From Megasphaera sp. (GTDB lineage Bacteria; Bacillota; Negativicutes; Veillonellales; Megasphaeraceae), in contig JALCDF010000003.1 in NCBI GenBank assembly GCA_022641375.1, forward strand, positions 363 through 64,362: 64,000 nucleotides of DNA, read 5' to 3'. The notes beneath the pieces were generated by a model that saw only the letters and a program-made list of their open reading frames with translations, made no database searches and was not told the DNA's origin. A program made the translations under genes and the position numbers. This document shows positions 36,634 through 44,572 of this stretch, in pieces (the first letter of the stretch is position 1; every line of letters starts with the position of its first letter).

Positions 36634-36641
36634 TCCCATAT

Positions 36642-36675
36642 AAAAAAAGATGATTCTTTTGAATCATCTTTTTTT
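36642..36675. terminator. Bidirectional terminator (rpmB / three-gene operon)
   Basis: AAAAAAAGATGATTC...GAATCATCTTTTTTT. Confidence 0.85.
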
Positions 36676-36698
36676 ATTACCCTCATTACCCTTTCCTT

Positions 36699-37796
36699 TT
36701 ACAATCCGTCCTGCCCCACTATGTGGTCGGCAAACGCTGCTGCCCGTTCATGGATTTGATTACAACGTAATATGCTTTTAGGTGCATTAGCTGTTTCCAC
36801 TAACGCAAACCGTCCCGGTAAAATAAAATTTTTATTACAATTCATCGCATCTATGATCTGCTCAGCTACAATATCACCACCGCTATATCCGGACACGATA
36901 AGTCCATACACTTTCTTATCCGCAAACGCTTCTCCTTCTTTACGGAACAATGCTGTCAAGCGGTTAATGAACGCTGTGATATTCGCACTGACAGCATCAT
37001 TGTAATTGGGACAAATAAGAACTAATGCATCACACTGCCGTACCGCCGGATACACTTCATCAACCATGACCCCGCCATAAAAGCAGTCTCCTTTTTCACC
37101 AAAATGAAGACAGGCTTCATAACTGCAGCCACGGCAATCAATGACGGATCCGTTACGCAGTGAAATTTCGTTTACCTGCGCCCGATCTCCGATGGACTGG
37201 CGCACCATTTCCCATAATAATAACGTATTTGATGTCTTGCGGCTCGATGCATGCAAAGCAACAATATATGGCTTTTTCCCCTGGGGGAGAGAGCTTTTTT
37301 TTTGCAACATTTTATCCGTGATTTTTAAAATCAGGCGATGCGCACTCTTTTCATACGCTTCGAACGGATGAATCCCCTGCACCATGGCCTGCGTATTAAA
37401 GTTGTATAAAGAACCGGTCGCTTCAACAAGCGGCTTGCCGGGAAATGAACAGCCAGCCCGATTAGCCATGGACACCATTTCACGGCCCACTTTTTTAGTA
37501 AAGAATTCATCGGGGCCATCTATCATGACGCCTCCCCAGCAGCCTTCAAAGCAATGGTCATTTTGGACTAAAAAGCGCAGAAATCTGGCATATGAAGCAG
37601 TAACCCCCCAGAGTGGCAGCGCCACGGCAAAAAGGATCGCCCTTTCCCCCAATTTATACGTATCCAAAAAAGATAGTAACCCATGCATGGTACTATACGA
37701 TTCATGAGGAACTCCATCTAACGCACTGGCAAGAATAGCATCCATACGCCGCGATTGTTCTGATTCGCTCCAACCGATCCGCACTACTGCTAACAT
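36699..37796 (-). CDS. Two-domain flavodoxin-like / NAD(P)H-FMN reductase family protein with 4-Cys motif
   Basis: C-domain ASSRKTSNT FMN-phosphate loop, CRGCSYEACLHFGEKGDC, PNYNDAVSA, SGYSGG; N-domain looks like a degenerate copy. Confidence 0.75.
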   Translation of the reverse strand: MLAVVRIGWSESEQSRRMDAILASALDGVPHESYSTMHGLLSFLDTYKLGERAILFAVALPLWGVTASYARFLRFLVQNDHCFEGCWGGVMIDGPDEFFTKKVGREMVSMANRAGCSFPGKPLVEATGSLYNFNTQAMVQGIHPFEAYEKSAHRLILKITDKMLQKKSSLPQGKKPYIVALHASSRKTSNTLLLWEMVRQSIGDRAQVNEISLRNGSVIDCRGCSYEACLHFGEKGDCFYGGVMVDEVYPAVRQCDALVLICPNYNDAVSANITAFINRLTALFRKEGEAFADKKVYGLIVSGYSGGDIVAEQIIDAMNCNKNFILPGRFALVETANAPKSILRCNQIHERAAAFADHIVGQDGL

Positions 37797-37812
37797 TCCT
37801 ACCGCCTTCTTT

Positions 37813-38787
37813 CTAACGAATATTGCATAAATTGCTATATGATTTAACTAACCGGCTGTATAAGGGCCGACATATCGGTTCGTTTTCATAGATGATACCA
37901 TCCGGTCCCATATAGTTTTTAATGCCAAAATACGCACCCCTGCCGGCACTTCCCAGATAAACGGACCCATAATGCCACTGTCCCCGCAACGTCAGCAGGA
38001 TAGACAATGCTGCCGAAGATAACGAGGGTGCAATATACGGCTTATATCCCAGATCACGTATCGCTATATTTGCATGGATAACCTTCTCTGTCAGCATCCG
38101 TGACAAGGTATCATCATAGTGTATCAAACTGTCCGCAATGACCAGGTCCTGACCATGAGGACCGAAAGCACGTCCTTCCGTAAGATACTGATGTATCCGT
38201 TCATCTCTTTCCGCATAGTAACAGGCCCGGGCATTCATGACTCCCAGCCCATATCCCTGTATCTGTGCCGGATGGCAGCCTGACCTGTCAAGAAAAGCTG
38301 CACATAACGGATCTACCGGGTCGGAAACAATGCATACCAACCCCTTATACGATGACTGGCGGGCTAAGGCCGCAAAATGGCCGATAAGGTTCCGGTTTGC
38401 TTCGAGTTGAGCCATACGCACATCGCCTTGCGCCCCCAGGGGAGGAACCCCCTTACTGGCGCAAAAAACGAATACGTCGCAATCAAATAACTGCGCTTCA
38501 TCAATACAATCCACCGGCGGCAACGGCAGATAAGTTCCCCCAAAGGGATACCGGATCTGATTTATTTCCATTTCCAGCCGTTGTGTATTTTGTTTATTAA
38601 TATCACAAATGCCGATAGAACGGATAACATCTCCCCCCAGGAGCCGCAAGCCAATGAGCATCGTCGTGCCCACATCACCCAGCGCCAGGATATGGACCCG
38701 GGCCGGCTTCCGTATCGGATTATGATCTAATGGCAGACCTGCTGTTCCCAATTCGTTGGGCAGATTACTGATATAATATGATTTCAT
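37813..38787 (-). CDS. Divergent lactate/malate dehydrogenase-fold protein
   Basis: HILALGDVG Rossmann loop, ICDIN, VRMAQLEAN, VSDPVD, MNAR, GPHG. Confidence 0.75.
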   Translation of the reverse strand: MKSYYISNLPNELGTAGLPLDHNPIRKPARVHILALGDVGTTMLIGLRLLGGDVIRSIGICDINKQNTQRLEMEINQIRYPFGGTYLPLPPVDCIDEAQLFDCDVFVFCASKGVPPLGAQGDVRMAQLEANRNLIGHFAALARQSSYKGLVCIVSDPVDPLCAAFLDRSGCHPAQIQGYGLGVMNARACYYAERDERIHQYLTEGRAFGPHGQDLVIADSLIHYDDTLSRMLTEKVIHANIAIRDLGYKPYIAPSLSSAALSILLTLRGQWHYGSVYLGSAGRGAYFGIKNYMGPDGIIYENEPICRPLYSRLVKSYSNLCNIR

Positions 38788-38808
38788 GAAACATCCTCCC
38801 CCTGCACT

Positions 38809-41800
38809 TTATCTATCCATGCGGTCCGACGACGGGGCCGAATCCATTTCTCCCCAACGCAGCCGCACCAGCCGTTCGATATCATTTTTGATGAACCGCA
38901 CGGGATCCATGTTCTCATCAAATTTAACTCCCACATCGATATCGGGAATACGGGGATATGTAATGACTTCGCCGAGGCGTTTCAACGTAAGACGCCGTTC
39001 ATACGTTTCCTGATACACATCCTGCAACGTTTCCATGATAAGAGCCGCATTCTGCAGGCAGACCAGGGAATACACAAAATCGGTTTCTTCACTGCCGTTG
39101 CCAATAAATGCCGGTTTAACATAGGGTAAAACGAGATTGATGGACGGGTTGGAATCATACCCGCTGTAATTATTCGCATTATCCATGCTGTCACCGCCAA
39201 TAAAGGGATAGCAATCCCGTTCATTGAGCCAAACTTCCAAGGTCGGCAAAAAATAGGCACTTTCTGTCTTAATATTTTTTTCTGCCATCATATCCATCGC
39301 CTGTCCCGTCATGACACCGACGAGTACTTCTTTGATGTTGACATCATTTTTCTTTAAATACGGTGTCAGCATATTCATACGGTGCCCTTTATGAAGCAAA
39401 TCATCAATCAGTATAACCGGGCGATTAAAAGATTTTATCATCTTGACCTGATTTTCTACTGAAGAATAATGATGAGATTCGGCAATCGTAAAACCCTTGA
39501 CCGAGCGGTTAAAGTATTTATCGATATGCAGTGTCTTGGTCACCGTATTGGGTACCAGCACATCACTGAGTGCTTTGCCAAACGGAACCGACATATATGG
39601 CCCCCGCCGCTTCTTTTTATCTTCGACAGTAGATACGCCATTGATTTCTGCCACTTTGTTGATAATTTTATTGTGAACAGCACTCATATTGAACGACAAC
39701 AGCAATTTCCCGGGATAAATATAATTCATGACTGACAATAAATTATCATGAGCCAAATCCAACGCATCCCGGACACGACGATTTTTGTTAAAAGGATTCT
39801 TGATGATTGTTTCTACATCACGGAAAATAACCACCGGTGATTTCATATTCACGGCATACAGAGGATGTGCTGCCCCTCTGGGTGCGATATTGACAAACCC
39901 CTGCATCTGCAAGGCATTGATTATCTTCGTATCATAGCCGCCTTCATCTACCGGTTTGTAAACAACATATGCAAAATCCCGGCCGATAAGTTCCGTCAGC
40001 ACTTCGGTAATCACGATTTGACTGACGTTAGCAATACCGGCATTATCATCGACATACAGAAAGCCGATGCAGGCAACGCTGCCGCCGGCAGCCTCACGAA
40101 TATGGGCTGCTACTTCAGAATCACCGAACTCACTGAGCAATTGCCGCGTGCCGATGCGATGAACCGCAGCATACGCAATCATTTCCTTATGCTGCCCCGC
40201 ATCATCGACATACAGTGTCCATACCCCTTCTCGTTCGATATAGCGATCCAGGATATCCGTATTATACCCTTTATCCCACAAAGTACCGCAAACAGGCCAT
40301 AAGCTTTCCGCACCACGGGGTTTAAAAGCACCGATACCAATTTCCCGTGCTTCCAGTACATGCTTATACGCCGGTTCTCGTAAATAAAGATTATTATCAT
40401 AAATAAAATTTTGGGCTACTGCATCGATAAGATTAGAAATATCCCTGTTCAAATCAATATTTTCACGAATTTTTGTCGAACTGATATCTTCATAAAATTT
40501 ATCCAGTGTCAGGCGAATAACATTTGCCTGGATATGGTATCCCGCTTCATCGCTGCCTTCCCTGTCGCCTTCACTCGTTTCTCGGGCAAAGGCAATATGA
40601 TTCACCGTATGAATGGAATTTTCTGTCGGCTCACTTGTATATGCCGATGCATGGGCAATCACATCCGTCCCGACAGCAATATACAAATCCTTGCCTTCAA
40701 AAATGTCTTTGAGACGTTTCACATCAGCCGGATTGGCGATATTCACAGGAATATCGTCTGGGAACGGATACATGTCTTCTTCGTCAGCCACGGACATATT
40801 CATGATTTTGCGCCGCATCAGCCGCGGCTGCGTGTGTTTGGACCAGGAAAACTCATCCAGGGCCAGATACACATCAAATCCTAAATCACGAATTTTTCTG
40901 GCAACGGCCTTATGCCCCAGACTAAACGGGTCAAAGGTTCCCGGATAAAAACAAGCCTTATTCCTGGCCGGGAAATTGAAATCGCCCGTTTCAAACTGAT
41001 GGCAGCTGATATACCGGTACATATGATTCAATACAGCCGCATTACTATAGAAGTCAAGCAGTCCTTCGGCACTTTCGTCAAGGAGAACCAGTAATTTTTT
41101 ATAACAATGCATAAACAAGAAATCTTTTCGTTCCATCGACATCACCGGACTATTGAATATGAAACGTCCGATATTGCGAAATGCATCCCGGCTTAATTCC
41201 TTGTCATAATGCGCATAGGCTTTAATGATGATATAAAGAAGACGTCGTTGACGCTTTTCATTATTACCATCCTCACTGCCGAATTTACAGGCAAATTCAT
41301 CGAAGTTTTCTAAAATAACCCCAACCGTATGCACCATGGAAGATGCCAGCGCAATATTCACGGTCATGATCTGCGCTTCCATCGTGGCTACAAATTCATC
41401 AAATTCCTGGACAGGAAGTTTTAAAATCATACGTCCCAAAAAATCTGGTACATACTTAGAAATTTGCGGGTCGCCTATTTCCAAGCCATTAAATAATTCT
41501 ACCGCTAATTCATTGCGCTGGGAATATGTCATATATTCAGCAATAGCCAGCAAACTAGCCCCGGCAGTCTGGCGAACGGAGATGGTCTCACTGACTTTAA
41601 GTAAATTAGTCAAATGCATGCCCAGGTGCATGACAGATCCGACATCACTTTTTTTATCCATATAATGCAACATAATTTCGATATTGGCAACTTTAACGAT
41701 CCAATGCGTTCCCATCTTAAGGTCATCAAGGAATAAATTCCCTACCCGGTTGACAAATGATTTGCGATCTGTCGGCAAAGACATAAGCGTCAGTAAATCC

Positions 41801-43662
41801 TGATAATATATGTCATCACCATACCCATCCATGAGATGACGGGCACAGCGTAAAGCCGCTACCCTGACGGGCAATTCCGATGCATCAGCAGCCGCCTGAA
41901 TAAACGACCCGGCCGTTTCCATAAATGTATCATCAATATAGGACCGATCTATATCCATCAGGGTTTTTAACAAAATAATACAGCGTTCCGTCGGATAGTC
42001 CGTATTTCTATAATATTGACGCAATTCTTTCAAATCTTGTTGTTGATCCGGCAAGGAAGCGCCTGCTAATGCTGCCTTAACAAAAAAGCTCAGACAATAC
42101 CCTATCCATATCTTATGCTGCTCCGTATAACGCAAATCCGGATGAATGATCATAGCTGTATAACGGGCAAACAACGATCTGCTGGTAACCGTCCGGGAAG
42201 GCAGAGAAACTCCTTTGGGCAGTTCTTTTGTATAGCGATCATTAAAATCAGCAACGATATGCCCCATGAGCAACGCTGCCTGAATACGGATATCCCCTTC
42301 TTTATGGGACAATAGTTCATAAAGAAATTTCAACGTCATCAGTTTTTGATGTTCTGTCATATACGTAGAATATTCTTCGAAAATGCTAATATATGTCCGC
42401 ACATCCTTCCAGCGTCGTTCGCTGCGGGCCGCTTCAATAAGATTGCCAAAATCACTTTCATCGCGAAAAATACTCATCAGGCGGATATTGTGATCAATAG
42501 CCGCATATTTCAGCTGATCTACAACATCCTCTCTTTCCAGGAGAACTTTTTCTTTGTGAATATAGAAGGGAACATGGTGAGGCGATTCGGCAAAATCTGC
42601 CGGTAATTCGGTAACAACACCTAATTCTTTCATGAAATCTTCAAAATCGGCCAATTTTTCATATACTTTTTGATACCGTTGCTTTTTGGTTTCATCCACA
42701 TTATCAAGTTTCCCCAGAATCACATCAAATGCCTGCGCAAGTGAATAAAAATGGACCACTTCGGCTCCGGTTACCGACCGAGTGCTTTTTACCCGAAAAT
42801 CAGCATAAATAAGCAATAGTGATTCAACAGACAAATTTTCTAATTCCAAATCCCACACAGAATGATTGGCAGCAATGTGCCCGATAGACGGCAAGCCGAC
42901 ACGTTGACAGCATATCCCCGTGTAATAATAATGCAAATAGGGCACTCTTTTTTCTTCATTCTTTTTGCAGCCATATTTACCTATGTCATGACAAGCTGCC
43001 GCTCCGGAAATCAATGCCAAATCCACGGGAACACCAGCTTTGTACAATTGCCTGGCAACATACATCGCTACATAATGGACACCGCCGACATGTCCCAACG
43101 TATTAAATGGCGTAATATCAATGCCTATACGCATGAGCTCATATATATATTGAGCCGCAATAAGGTGGCGCATATGCAGATATTCCCGGCCACATCCCTG
43201 GGAAGCAGCAGCTTCTTCATTCAACAGCCGCATCGTCCGTGTCGGATCAAACGGAAGAATTTTATTTTCAAAATGAAACAATCCCCGCAAAATCTGCAAG
43301 AATATTGCCGCACCCAATTTTTTTTGGGACAGTTCTCTTTTTTCGACTTCATTATTACTTCCACCGGATGGAACAGGAAAAAGCCGCCTCAATATTTTAT
43401 GATAACAATATGCCGGCCATCCTTCGGACGGTTCATCATGCAGACAGGCAATATAGGCCTTGGCCAATTGGCATACTTGCTGTGTTTGGAAGCGGGCACC
43501 AGGATTACGGCTGGCTGCCAAACGGGATGCTAATATACGGATACGGTTTTCACGAATAAACACGGCCATATCTTCTTCATCAAATCCTGCCATGCCAAGA
43601 AAACGACGGTCCTCTAATGCCTTGCATATTTCTTTAAATACTGCCTCTTTTTCATTTCCCAT
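38809..43662 (-). CDS. Large multidomain protein (~1617 aa): HD domain, HEAT-like repeats, NadD-like nucleotidyltransferase, GNAT-like region, PRTase
   Basis: H...ACHDIGK...H...NH...YAD; FYPGTFDPFSLGH, VGTD, ISSTKIR; RPVILIDDLLHKG; start at MGNEK behind GGGGTG. Confidence 0.8.
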   Translation of the reverse strand: MGNEKEAVFKEICKALEDRRFLGMAGFDEEDMAVFIRENRIRILASRLAASRNPGARFQTQQVCQLAKAYIACLHDEPSEGWPAYCYHKILRRLFPVPSGGSNNEVEKRELSQKKLGAAIFLQILRGLFHFENKILPFDPTRTMRLLNEEAAASQGCGREYLHMRHLIAAQYIYELMRIGIDITPFNTLGHVGGVHYVAMYVARQLYKAGVPVDLALISGAAACHDIGKYGCKKNEEKRVPYLHYYYTGICCQRVGLPSIGHIAANHSVWDLELENLSVESLLLIYADFRVKSTRSVTGAEVVHFYSLAQAFDVILGKLDNVDETKKQRYQKVYEKLADFEDFMKELGVVTELPADFAESPHHVPFYIHKEKVLLEREDVVDQLKYAAIDHNIRLMSIFRDESDFGNLIEAARSERRWKDVRTYISIFEEYSTYMTEHQKLMTLKFLYELLSHKEGDIRIQAALLMGHIVADFNDRYTKELPKGVSLPSRTVTSRSLFARYTAMIIHPDLRYTEQHKIWIGYCLSFFVKAALAGASLPDQQQDLKELRQYYRNTDYPTERCIILLKTLMDIDRSYIDDTFMETAGSFIQAAADASELPVRVAALRCARHLMDGYGDDIYYQDLLTLMSLPTDRKSFVNRVGNLFLDDLKMGTHWIVKVANIEIMLHYMDKKSDVGSVMHLGMHLTNLLKVSETISVRQTAGASLLAIAEYMTYSQRNELAVELFNGLEIGDPQISKYVPDFLGRMILKLPVQEFDEFVATMEAQIMTVNIALASSMVHTVGVILENFDEFACKFGSEDGNNEKRQRRLLYIIIKAYAHYDKELSRDAFRNIGRFIFNSPVMSMERKDFLFMHCYKKLLVLLDESAEGLLDFYSNAAVLNHMYRYISCHQFETGDFNFPARNKACFYPGTFDPFSLGHKAVARKIRDLGFDVYLALDEFSWSKHTQPRLMRRKIMNMSVADEEDMYPFPDDIPVNIANPADVKRLKDIFEGKDLYIAVGTDVIAHASAYTSEPTENSIHTVNHIAFARETSEGDREGSDEAGYHIQANVIRLTLDKFYEDISSTKIRENIDLNRDISNLIDAVAQNFIYDNNLYLREPAYKHVLEAREIGIGAFKPRGAESLWPVCGTLWDKGYNTDILDRYIEREGVWTLYVDDAGQHKEMIAYAAVHRIGTRQLLSEFGDSEVAAHIREAAGGSVACIGFLYVDDNAGIANVSQIVITEVLTELIGRDFAYVVYKPVDEGGYDTKIINALQMQGFVNIAPRGAAHPLYAVNMKSPVVIFRDVETIIKNPFNKNRRVRDALDLAHDNLLSVMNYIYPGKLLLSFNMSAVHNKIINKVAEINGVSTVEDKKKRRGPYMSVPFGKALSDVLVPNTVTKTLHIDKYFNRSVKGFTIAESHHYSSVENQVKMIKSFNRPVILIDDLLHKGHRMNMLTPYLKKNDVNIKEVLVGVMTGQAMDMMAEKNIKTESAYFLPTLEVWLNERDCYPFIGGDSMDNANNYSGYDSNPSINLVLPYVKPAFIGNGSEETDFVYSLVCLQNAALIMETLQDVYQETYERRLTLKRLGEVITYPRIPDIDVGVKFDENMDPVRFIKNDIERLVRLRWGEMDSAPSSDRMDR

Positions 43663-43710: not shown

Positions 43711-43737
43711 AAAAAAAGACGCCAATGGCGTCTTTTT
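43711..43737 (-). terminator. Terminator-like hairpin after the PSRP gene
   Basis: AAAAAGACGCCA/TGGCGTCTTTTT. Confidence 0.75.
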
Positions 43738-43750
43738 ATACCATCTGTTT

Positions 43751-44572
43751 TTATTCTTTGTAGAGCTCTTTATTTCTCTTGACGATTTCTAAAACCAGAT
43801 TAGCTGTTTCTTCAATTGCTTTAGACGATACGTCAACAATGGGACAATGAAGCCGGCGCATAACACCACGAGCATATGTCAATTCTTCGTTGATGCGTTC
43901 AATATTGGCATAACTCGCATTGGAATCCAATCCCATACTGCGAAGACGTTCCGACCGGATAAAGTTCAATTTAAACGGATCAATGATCAGGCCGACGATT
44001 TTACGAGCCGGTACCTGAAATAATTCCGGCGGCAGGGGTACTTCCGGTACCAAAGGCAAATTAGCCGCTTTGACTCGTTTATGAGCCAGATACATAGATA
44101 ATGGCGTTTTCGATGTCCGGGATACGCCGACAATGACAATGTCTGCCTGAAGAAATCCCATGGGGTTTTTACCATCATCAAATTTAACGGCAAATTCAAT
44201 AGCCTCTACCCGTTTGAAATAATCTTCATCAAGCTGGTGGATCATACCGGCTTTCATGGTAGGATCCGTTGATGTCAGGTTCCCGATACCTTCCAGCATG
44301 GGCCCGATAATATCTACTACAACCACATCGGTATCAGCCGTCAAATCTTTTAACTTCCGCCGTAATACCGGTGAAATAATGGTGTAACAAATCATCGATT
44401 GATTTTCTCTTGCTTTTTTTACTATATCTTCAATTTGTTGCTCCGACCGGATATAGGGGATGCGGACGATATTGAACTTTTCCTTATCGTACTGGCTGGC
44501 TGCGGCACGAGCTACGCGTTCAGCCGTCTCACCGAGAGAATCGGAGCAGGCATAAATAATAGGTATTGACAC
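43751..44572 (-). CDS. PEP synthase / PPDK regulatory kinase-pyrophosphorylase (DUF299, YqfL-like)
   Basis: SDSLGETAE, YFKRVEAIEFAVKFDDG, GVSRTSKTP, AIEETA. Confidence 0.95.
   Translation of the reverse strand: MSIPIIYACSDSLGETAERVARAAASQYDKEKFNIVRIPYIRSEQQIEDIVKKARENQSMICYTIISPVLRRKLKDLTADTDVVVVDIIGPMLEGIGNLTSTDPTMKAGMIHQLDEDYFKRVEAIEFAVKFDDGKNPMGFLQADIVIVGVSRTSKTPLSMYLAHKRVKAANLPLVPEVPLPPELFQVPARKIVGLIIDPFKLNFIRSERLRSMGLDSNASYANIERINEELTYARGVMRRLHCPIVDVSSKAIEETANLVLEIVKRNKELYKE

Follow-up and report, generated by a model that had tools for sequence, protein, structure and literature searches.

A 64,000-nucleotide stretch of a Megasphaera sp. assembly (contig JALCDF010000003.1; hereafter the window, numbered from its first letter) contains three adjacent minus-strand open reading frames, which encode a giant multi-module protein, an atypical lactate dehydrogenase (LDH)-like protein and an iron-sulfur (Fe-S) flavoprotein. 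The giant (P0001, 38809..43662, 1,617 aa from ATG) is followed by the LDH/malate dehydrogenase (MDH)-fold protein (P0002, 37813..38787, 324 aa) and then by the flavodoxin-fold Fe-S/flavin protein (P0003, 36699..37796, 365 aa), with spacers of 21 and 16 bases. A first annotation made from the letters of the window, here called the sequence-only reading, had described the same co-oriented genes and gaps and a ribosome-binding site for each gene; purine-rich leaders (GGGGTG, GGGGGAGG and AGGCGGT) indeed lie ahead of the three starts. It had also placed the trio correctly, between a ppsA–ccpN–PSRP block on one side and a convergent rpmB on the other. GC content and third-position GC (GC3) of the trio are like those of the adjacent genes, each trio gene is single-copy in the host assembly (79% complete), and among named sequences the giant is closest to ones labelled Megasphaera, at 85% identity. 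The trio is a real, widespread and tightly co-inherited three-gene system; its anatomy is well supported, and its chemistry we infer.

All three genes are present in the same order in 26/26 distinct genome loci, counted as 15 from named genomes plus one further record, all reached via the giant, and 10 from other genomes, reached via the LDH-like protein. Among 54 metagenome loci, 14 break off at or inside the giant and another 5 after the LDH-like gene; the layouts of the 35 that remain informative show all three genes in 33. Many metagenome loci are close kin, and one downstream gene is common to 18. When 401 genomes of the phylum were sampled, searches with the LDH-like protein and with a profile of the giant picked out the same 11. 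Two genomes hold the redox pair apart from the giant, with the giant elsewhere in the genome, and three genomes without the LDH-like gene yielded no giant either. In one assembly (L045:9457-12420, G606), the LDH-like and flavoprotein genes are fused into a 988-residue frame, which may reflect a lost stop codon. The 79 loci share no conserved fourth gene; neighbours that recur are lineage-specific, and the 127 scanned of 207 neighbour representatives revealed no theme. The idea of a self-contained unit is therefore borne out by co-occurrence across genomes (26/26, 33/35 and the same 11/401); the linkage to nadD or yqeK that the sequence-only reading had envisaged was not seen among the neighbours.

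Distribution is patchy. Within its own order, the trio is present in genome G000 and 19/25 same-genus genomes and in 0/131 others; in another class it is found in 21/72 genomes, all within one family. Named members of the family come from Megasphaera, Acidaminococcus, Hornefia, Alkaliphilus, Peptoclostridium and Clostridium aceticum. In a midpoint-rooted FastTree tree of 50 giants, from which P0337 and P0342 were left out, the 9 rows from Megasphaera and Acidaminococcus (support 99) are nested among copies labelled Hornefia, Emergencia and Anaerovoracaceae. The branching suggests lateral transfer into Negativicutes, the direction of which is not given by a midpoint-rooted tree.

Giant homologs number 2,711 among 7,996 scored candidates, and the C-terminal 733 aa of the giant yielded 563 representatives at 50% clustering. 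The giant is composed of five modules: HD, HEAT-like, NadD-fold, degenerate GNAT and type I phosphoribosyltransferase (PRTase) fold. The sequence-only reading had named it an HD–nucleotidyltransferase (NTase)–PRTase protein; those three folds were upheld, but the HEAT-like and GNAT-fold modules had been overlooked. Motif conservation was counted in 88 full-length diverse homologs. The HDIG-type HD phosphohydrolase module covers residues ~160-350 (42613..43185). Pfam HD matches 28/32 homologs at E ≤ 0.1 (best 1.2e-6), the window copy falling under the gathering score, and all six metal ligands (H191, H225, D226, H244, H267 and D288) are kept in 80/88. With a mean column conservation of 0.60, HD is the best-kept module. 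The next ~490 residues (~400-890; 40993..42465) form a helical region that looks HEAT-like and is likely a scaffold, as judged by weak profile matches (Pfam HEAT, E 0.039; CAND2, E 0.038) and by PF02985 assignments precomputed on several homologs.

The NadD-fold adenylyltransferase module of the HIGH class (residues ~900-1100; 40363..40965) was identified by both Pfam (CTP_transf_like, 1.5e-8) and structure prediction. In a model of residues 895-1277 with a predicted local distance difference test score (pLDDT) of 92, all listed Foldseek PDB matches of the NTase are NadD (TM-target 0.69-0.81). Its motifs are PGTFDPF-S-x-x-H, the family-specific DEFSWSK, GxD and SSTxIR, and the ATP-side residues H917, K942, D1000, S1062 and R1066 occur together in 71/88. 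By hand alignment, Y1008, present in 85/88, takes the place of the Trp that stacks the pyridine ring in NadD. The adjoining segment (residues ~1105-1272; 39847..40350) is a degenerate GNAT fold, as indicated by the strands and helices of the model and by Foldseek matches to GNAT acetyltransferases in BFVD (E 2e-5 to 3e-4, TM-target up to 0.70). Pfam recognizes it in 1/32 homologs (E 0.0047). It is the least conserved enzyme-like module, with 2/168 columns at least 90% conserved; the aligned rows contain no conserved coenzyme A (CoA)-binding motif A (R/Q-x-x-G-x-G/A), and hhalign of the region against one neighbouring GNAT-like protein gave no match.

The type I PRTase-fold module (residues ~1275-1480; 39223..39840) bears VPFG, K1376, D1420-D1421 and the loop DDLLHKGHR. 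A predicted model of residues 1274-1617 (pLDDT 94) has a type I PRTase core, for which Foldseek listed uracil (UPRT), xanthine (XPRT) and adenine (APRT) PRTases from E 2e-5 onward; the VIA comparison with an orotate PRTase (OPRT) domain reached Z 11.3 (root-mean-square deviation 3.1, 120 aligned). The top VIA Z scores tie across OPRT, APRT, UPRT and the hypoxanthine enzyme (HPRT) with no subfamily standing out, and the regulators PyrR (Z 8.1) and PurR (Z 7.8) rank under the enzymes. Four PRTase motif residues are found together in 73/88 (K1376 in 85/88, D1420 in 85/88, D1421 in 80/88). Like these type I PRTases, PyrR and PurR included, the module has the core fold and the di-acid motif; unlike them, it has an HKG(Y/H)R loop, a C-terminal extension of its own and no clear subfamily. 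The extension (38833..39222; W..E...YPFIGGD and SIN) has 12/130 columns at least 90% conserved and is a possible base-binding hood; the fold search spanned model residues 3-250, barely reaching it. Across the whole protein, the HD, NTase and PRTase motif sets are intact together in 62/88 homologs, and six of the 88 rows keep no motif set, possibly through misalignment. Sequence searches of solved structures with the single giant or the GNAT profile gave nothing, and the ESM Atlas returned only the family itself and unnamed clusters.

The second protein, described in the sequence-only reading as an atypical LDH-fold protein, matches Pfam Ldh_1_N (2.9e-6) and profiles of LDH/MDH structures (to 2.3e-9). 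The Arg109, Arg171 and His195 equivalents are each present in 40/40 homologs, while Asn140 is replaced by Asp and Asp168 by Met, also in 40/40. Together, the two exchanges would leave the pocket with an unchanged net charge, which may point to a site rebuilt rather than dead; this reading leans on an LDH Asn140Asp mutant that was reportedly studied in 1992. In LDH and MDH, Arg109, Asp168, Arg171 and His195 are described as catalytic and Asn140 as a first-shell residue (PMC4109310). The protein shares with L-LDH/MDH the Rossmann motif, the strand-B Asp (36/40) and the three retained residues; it differs in Asp140 and Met168, and around position 102 neither a Gln nor an Arg is conserved. R244, K249 and P250 are invariant. 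Its scores are far from those of either family (31 versus a cut-off of 303.55 for LDH, 26.3 versus 283 for MDH). Most homologs (413-430 aa) bear an extra ~100-aa N-terminal domain, which is absent from the window copy; the short form is common to the window, Acidaminococcus, L012, L013 and L034.

The third protein has a Pfam FMN_red domain (1.1e-18, residues 178-333) and four cysteines (C221, C224, C229 and C238) that are all present in 33/33 homologs with the spacing CX2CX4CX8C. Domain and cysteines together predict a flavin mononucleotide (FMN)- and Fe-S-containing protein. The iron-sulfur flavoprotein Isf has the motif CX2CX2CX5-7C (PMC3164229). The trio flavoprotein resembles Isf in that four closely spaced cysteines accompany a flavodoxin-like FMN_red domain, and differs in the cysteine spacing and in an extra N-terminal domain that doubles its length. 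No solved relative was found at E < 0.3.

Databases label homologs of the giant nicotinate-nucleotide adenylyltransferase or cytidyltransferase. Its NTase module does have the HIGH-class fold and SSTxIR of NadD, with S/T-x-G/S-H as the first motif, which is (H/T)xGH in NadD. Against the NadD family model (TIGR00482), the giant scores 31.6 bits versus a cut-off of 112.45, and its best homolog 56.3 bits; a weak NCBIfam PRK07152 match (27.7 bits) covers the NTase part only. A canonical NadD over the cut-off is encoded in G000 and 5/5 other carriers, and PncB in 5/5. The sub-cut-off score and these separate genes rule out a role in housekeeping synthesis of nicotinamide adenine dinucleotide (NAD). 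As the carriers tested hold ordinary NadD and PncB, the trio more probably makes a second product than duplicates an existing one. One complete genome (G448:C1) has three NadD-family genes over the cut-off beside the giant.

The nearest described architecture is that of NadD–YqeK. In a tested make-and-break precedent, NadD is joined to an HD diphosphatase, which splits nicotinate adenine dinucleotide and its analogues (PMC9426524), and a mycoplasma NadD–HD fusion is described as hydrolysing cyclic di-AMP (PMC12879401). In the giant, too, a single polypeptide carries both a NadD-fold NTase and an HD hydrolase. It differs in that HD comes first and 550 residues away, that the chain also has HEAT-like, GNAT-fold and PRTase-fold modules and is accompanied by two redox proteins, and that carriers have a separate true NadD (6/6). 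Each module of the system has known relatives yet fails membership of its nearest family, and we found no described system with this set. A literature search by domain combinations and six homolog accessions, with locus tags and supplements outside its reach so that an omics mention could be missed, found no study of the trio, in line with the sequence-only reading, which knew of no characterised pathway with this combination. Newness is claimed for the architecture; the chemistry could prove a variant of a known make-and-break scheme.

We tentatively favour, at well short of even probability, a reading in which the giant makes and destroys a NAD-like adenine dinucleotide apart from ordinary NAD, and the redox pair uses or finishes the product. 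Dinucleotides are made by a PRTase followed by an adenylyltransferase. The PRTase module would join phosphoribosyl pyrophosphate (PRPP) to a base, and the NadD-fold module would then add AMP from ATP. The LDH-like protein would turn over a 2-oxo or 2-hydroxy acid bearing a further anionic group, with electrons passing to or from the flavin/Fe-S protein. The HD module would split the dinucleotide, as YqeK does with NadD products, and the HEAT region and degenerate GNAT domain would set the balance of making and breaking. The product would be a private cofactor or a signal, and a separate one is favoured because ordinary NAD salvage is present. This reading draws support from the NadD-like NTase with its ATP-side residues (71/88), from Y1008 (85/88), from the HD ligands (80/88), from the PRTase Lys and di-acid, from the residues that the LDH-like protein retains along with its invariant R244 and K249, and from the fusion of the LDH-like and flavoprotein genes in L045. 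It is possible, if on balance doubtful, that anaerobic Bacillota carry a complete undescribed pathway of this kind, with the giant building and destroying a molecule on which a rewired LDH and Fe-S flavoprotein run. Separate from the NAD pool, that molecule would be a new NAD-like redox cofactor or else a nucleotide second messenger.

Several observations weigh against a dinucleotide pathway. The NTase set alone is altered in 9/88 homologs and the PRTase set alone in 9/88, losses that are odd for a strict two-step pathway. The matches of the PRTase module are distant, at 10-15% identity and with TM-target values of 0.33-0.50. In usual type I PRTases, the PRPP loop consists of the di-acid followed by Thr/Ser/Gly-rich residues; that of this family is the di-acid followed by H-K-G-Y-R (DD-x-x-H-K-G-Y-R). 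Given the atypical loop and the remote matches, the PRTase module may only bind. A 490-residue helical scaffold is unneeded for small-molecule synthesis, and the LDH-like protein has Met in place of Asp168 in all 40 homologs. Two of the 35 informative metagenome loci (L089 and L092) have no flavoprotein gene beside the LDH-like gene. Among the genes that recur around the trio in the neighbour loci there is no transporter, base-supply gene or client enzyme.

Some of the same observations would suit a signalling hub, which we consider somewhat unlikely. Here, only the NTase and HD modules would be catalytic, making and breaking a second messenger in the manner of RelA/SpoT, and the PRTase-, GNAT- and LDH-like and Fe-S flavin parts would be sensors reading PRPP or purine nucleotides, acyl-CoA, a 2-oxo acid or NADH, and the redox state. 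In GlnD/GlnE and RelA–SpoT, an HD hydrolase opposes a synthase, and small domains are appended to the pair. The giant similarly pairs synthase-type and HD modules with small domains, whereas its NTase fold is a different one and no ACT or TGS match was found in it. That HD is the best-kept module fits a hub, as do the degenerate GNAT, the atypical PRPP loop, the lost Asp168 and the presence of the regulatory PyrR and PurR, though under the enzymes, among the PRTase fold matches; hydrolysis of cyclic di-AMP by a mycoplasma NadD–HD fusion offers a parallel (PMC12879401). However, the LDH-like protein has retained Arg109, Arg171 and His195 and gained an invariant Asp140, which resembles a rebuilt active site, most homologs retain the catalytic Lys and the di-acid of the PRTase, and no receptor or regulator gene recurs in the neighbour loci.

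The sequence-only reading had offered a GlnD/GlnE-style writer-eraser of a protein modification as its alternative. In such a scheme, which we judge unlikely, the NTase would adenylylate, or the PRTase phosphoribosylate, a target held by the HEAT-like region, and HD would take the modification off again; one version places the target in nitrogen assimilation. An NTase with HD and small regulatory domains follows the logic of GlnD, and a long helical region, weakly evidenced as it is, suits protein binding. Glutamate dehydrogenase is encoded directly downstream on the same strand in three loci (L059:17819-19165, L104 and L107). On the other hand, GlnD and GlnE use the polymerase-beta NTase fold and the giant has a NadD-like one. 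PII is present in 2/5 carriers and was not found in three that are 98-99% complete, glutamine synthetase types vary among the 5 carriers, and GSIII_N occurs in 0/157 genomes (20 carriers included). Amt is found in 19/20 carriers and also in 59/137 non-carriers, and no amt, PII or glnA was seen among the 127 scanned of 207 neighbour representatives. In the genomes and loci covered, a nitrogen link as a general rule is not supported, given Amt in non-carriers, patchy PII and mixed glutamine synthetase types; the literal GlnD/GlnE form is weakened, and the writer-eraser idea is kept as a rival.

It is improbable that the trio serves damage control or side salvage, recycling or destroying wrong or damaged NAD analogues built up in anaerobes. 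The proofreading precedent of NadD–YqeK (PMC9426524) and the NadD-like pocket of the NTase module would agree with such a role, and a gene that we recognize by sequence as NiaR-like follows the trio in L012 and L013. All of the bacteria need NAD, yet the trio was found in 0/131 other Veillonellales genomes; no nad gene recurs nearby, and the scaffold and GNAT module are left unexplained. By far the least probable reading takes the trio for a spare copy of ordinary NadD or LDH, or else for a defence or mobile island, as the database names and the patchiness within one genus (19/25) might suggest: the scores (31.6 bits versus 112 for NadD, 31 versus 304 for LDH) speak against the former, and the empty PADLOC, phage and viral searches and the neighbour-like GC and GC3 against the latter. 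PADLOC 2.0 returned 0 families for the 3 trio proteins at E ≤ 1, no trio match was found in 50,697 phage records or in viral contigs, and the sole plasmid-collection match is a 2.6-Mb record; defence, phage or plasmid cargo is accordingly unsupported by these searches.

In databases, a family of thousands of proteins goes under the name of plain NadD, a label that would lead astray any metabolic model of anaerobes from gut, rumen or digester. If the trio does make a new dinucleotide, this would be a new cofactor or signal. With three genes and no other conserved partner, the system is small and hence directly testable.

The insertion site was examined in genomes with and without the trio. Upstream of the giant lies the gene for the phosphoenolpyruvate synthase regulatory protein (PSRP; 43751..44572, minus strand; NCBIfam PRK05339, 2.8e-96), and downstream of the flavoprotein gene is the convergent gene for ribosomal protein L28 (36442..36633, plus strand), which we take to be rpmB from its translation. 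Hairpins at 43711-43737 and 36642-36675 had been put forward as the bounds of the trio. Both fold, at about 43713..43737, after PSRP (-14.5 kcal/mol), and at about 36640..36677, a two-way hairpin between the trio and rpmB (-18.8 kcal/mol); neither was listed by a terminator scan. Their role as the trio's own borders was not sustained: in the trio-less genome G463, both are retained in the 173-base PSRP–rpmB gap (L043). Since they persist there, the two hairpins are most readily explained as terminators, the first of PSRP and the second of rpmB, the first lying outside the trio. In four trio-less genomes of the same genus, PSRP adjoins rpmB with ~170 bases between; the contig of a fifth ends.

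No sigma-70-like site was found on the minus strand between the PSRP hairpin and the giant start. Such a site lies ahead of ccpN at 45295-45266; the region holds fewer sites than shuffles. The region is present in four metatranscriptome runs from 2 studies; a contig crosses the PSRP hairpin into the giant in 4/4, and one contig spans the giant and the LDH-like gene. These contigs do no more than fit read-through from the ccpN–PSRP side; they reveal neither a single transcript nor its level, library DNA is possible, and RNA depth cannot rank the genes.

A few neighbouring and unrelated genes were also noted. The NiaR-like regulator genes after the trio (L012:8950-9462 and L013:14922-15488), presumptive assignments with no family match at 1e-25, are accompanied by a response regulator ahead. 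In L035 and L036, and farther off in L037, lactate-utilisation genes that by their sequence we take to be LutABC-like face the trio from downstream. A 611-codon frame (G000:C31:7283-8902) holds Amt and a PII domain in an apparent Amt–PII fusion, and in many genomes of the order Amt matches lie within frames of 608-688 codons. The only glutamine-synthetase-like gene found (G000:C1:88111-88935 and L115) belongs to a frame of ~645-680 codons that matches Gln-synt_C in part and gave no GSIII_N match. A link to the nickel-pincer (Lar) pathway was rejected, as LarC does not track the trio (4/21 carriers of family f9; 4/6 non-carriers of the window's own genus). In most same-family genomes, as at G000:C50:5473-6276, LarC is encoded in two pieces, by genes that lie apart from each other.

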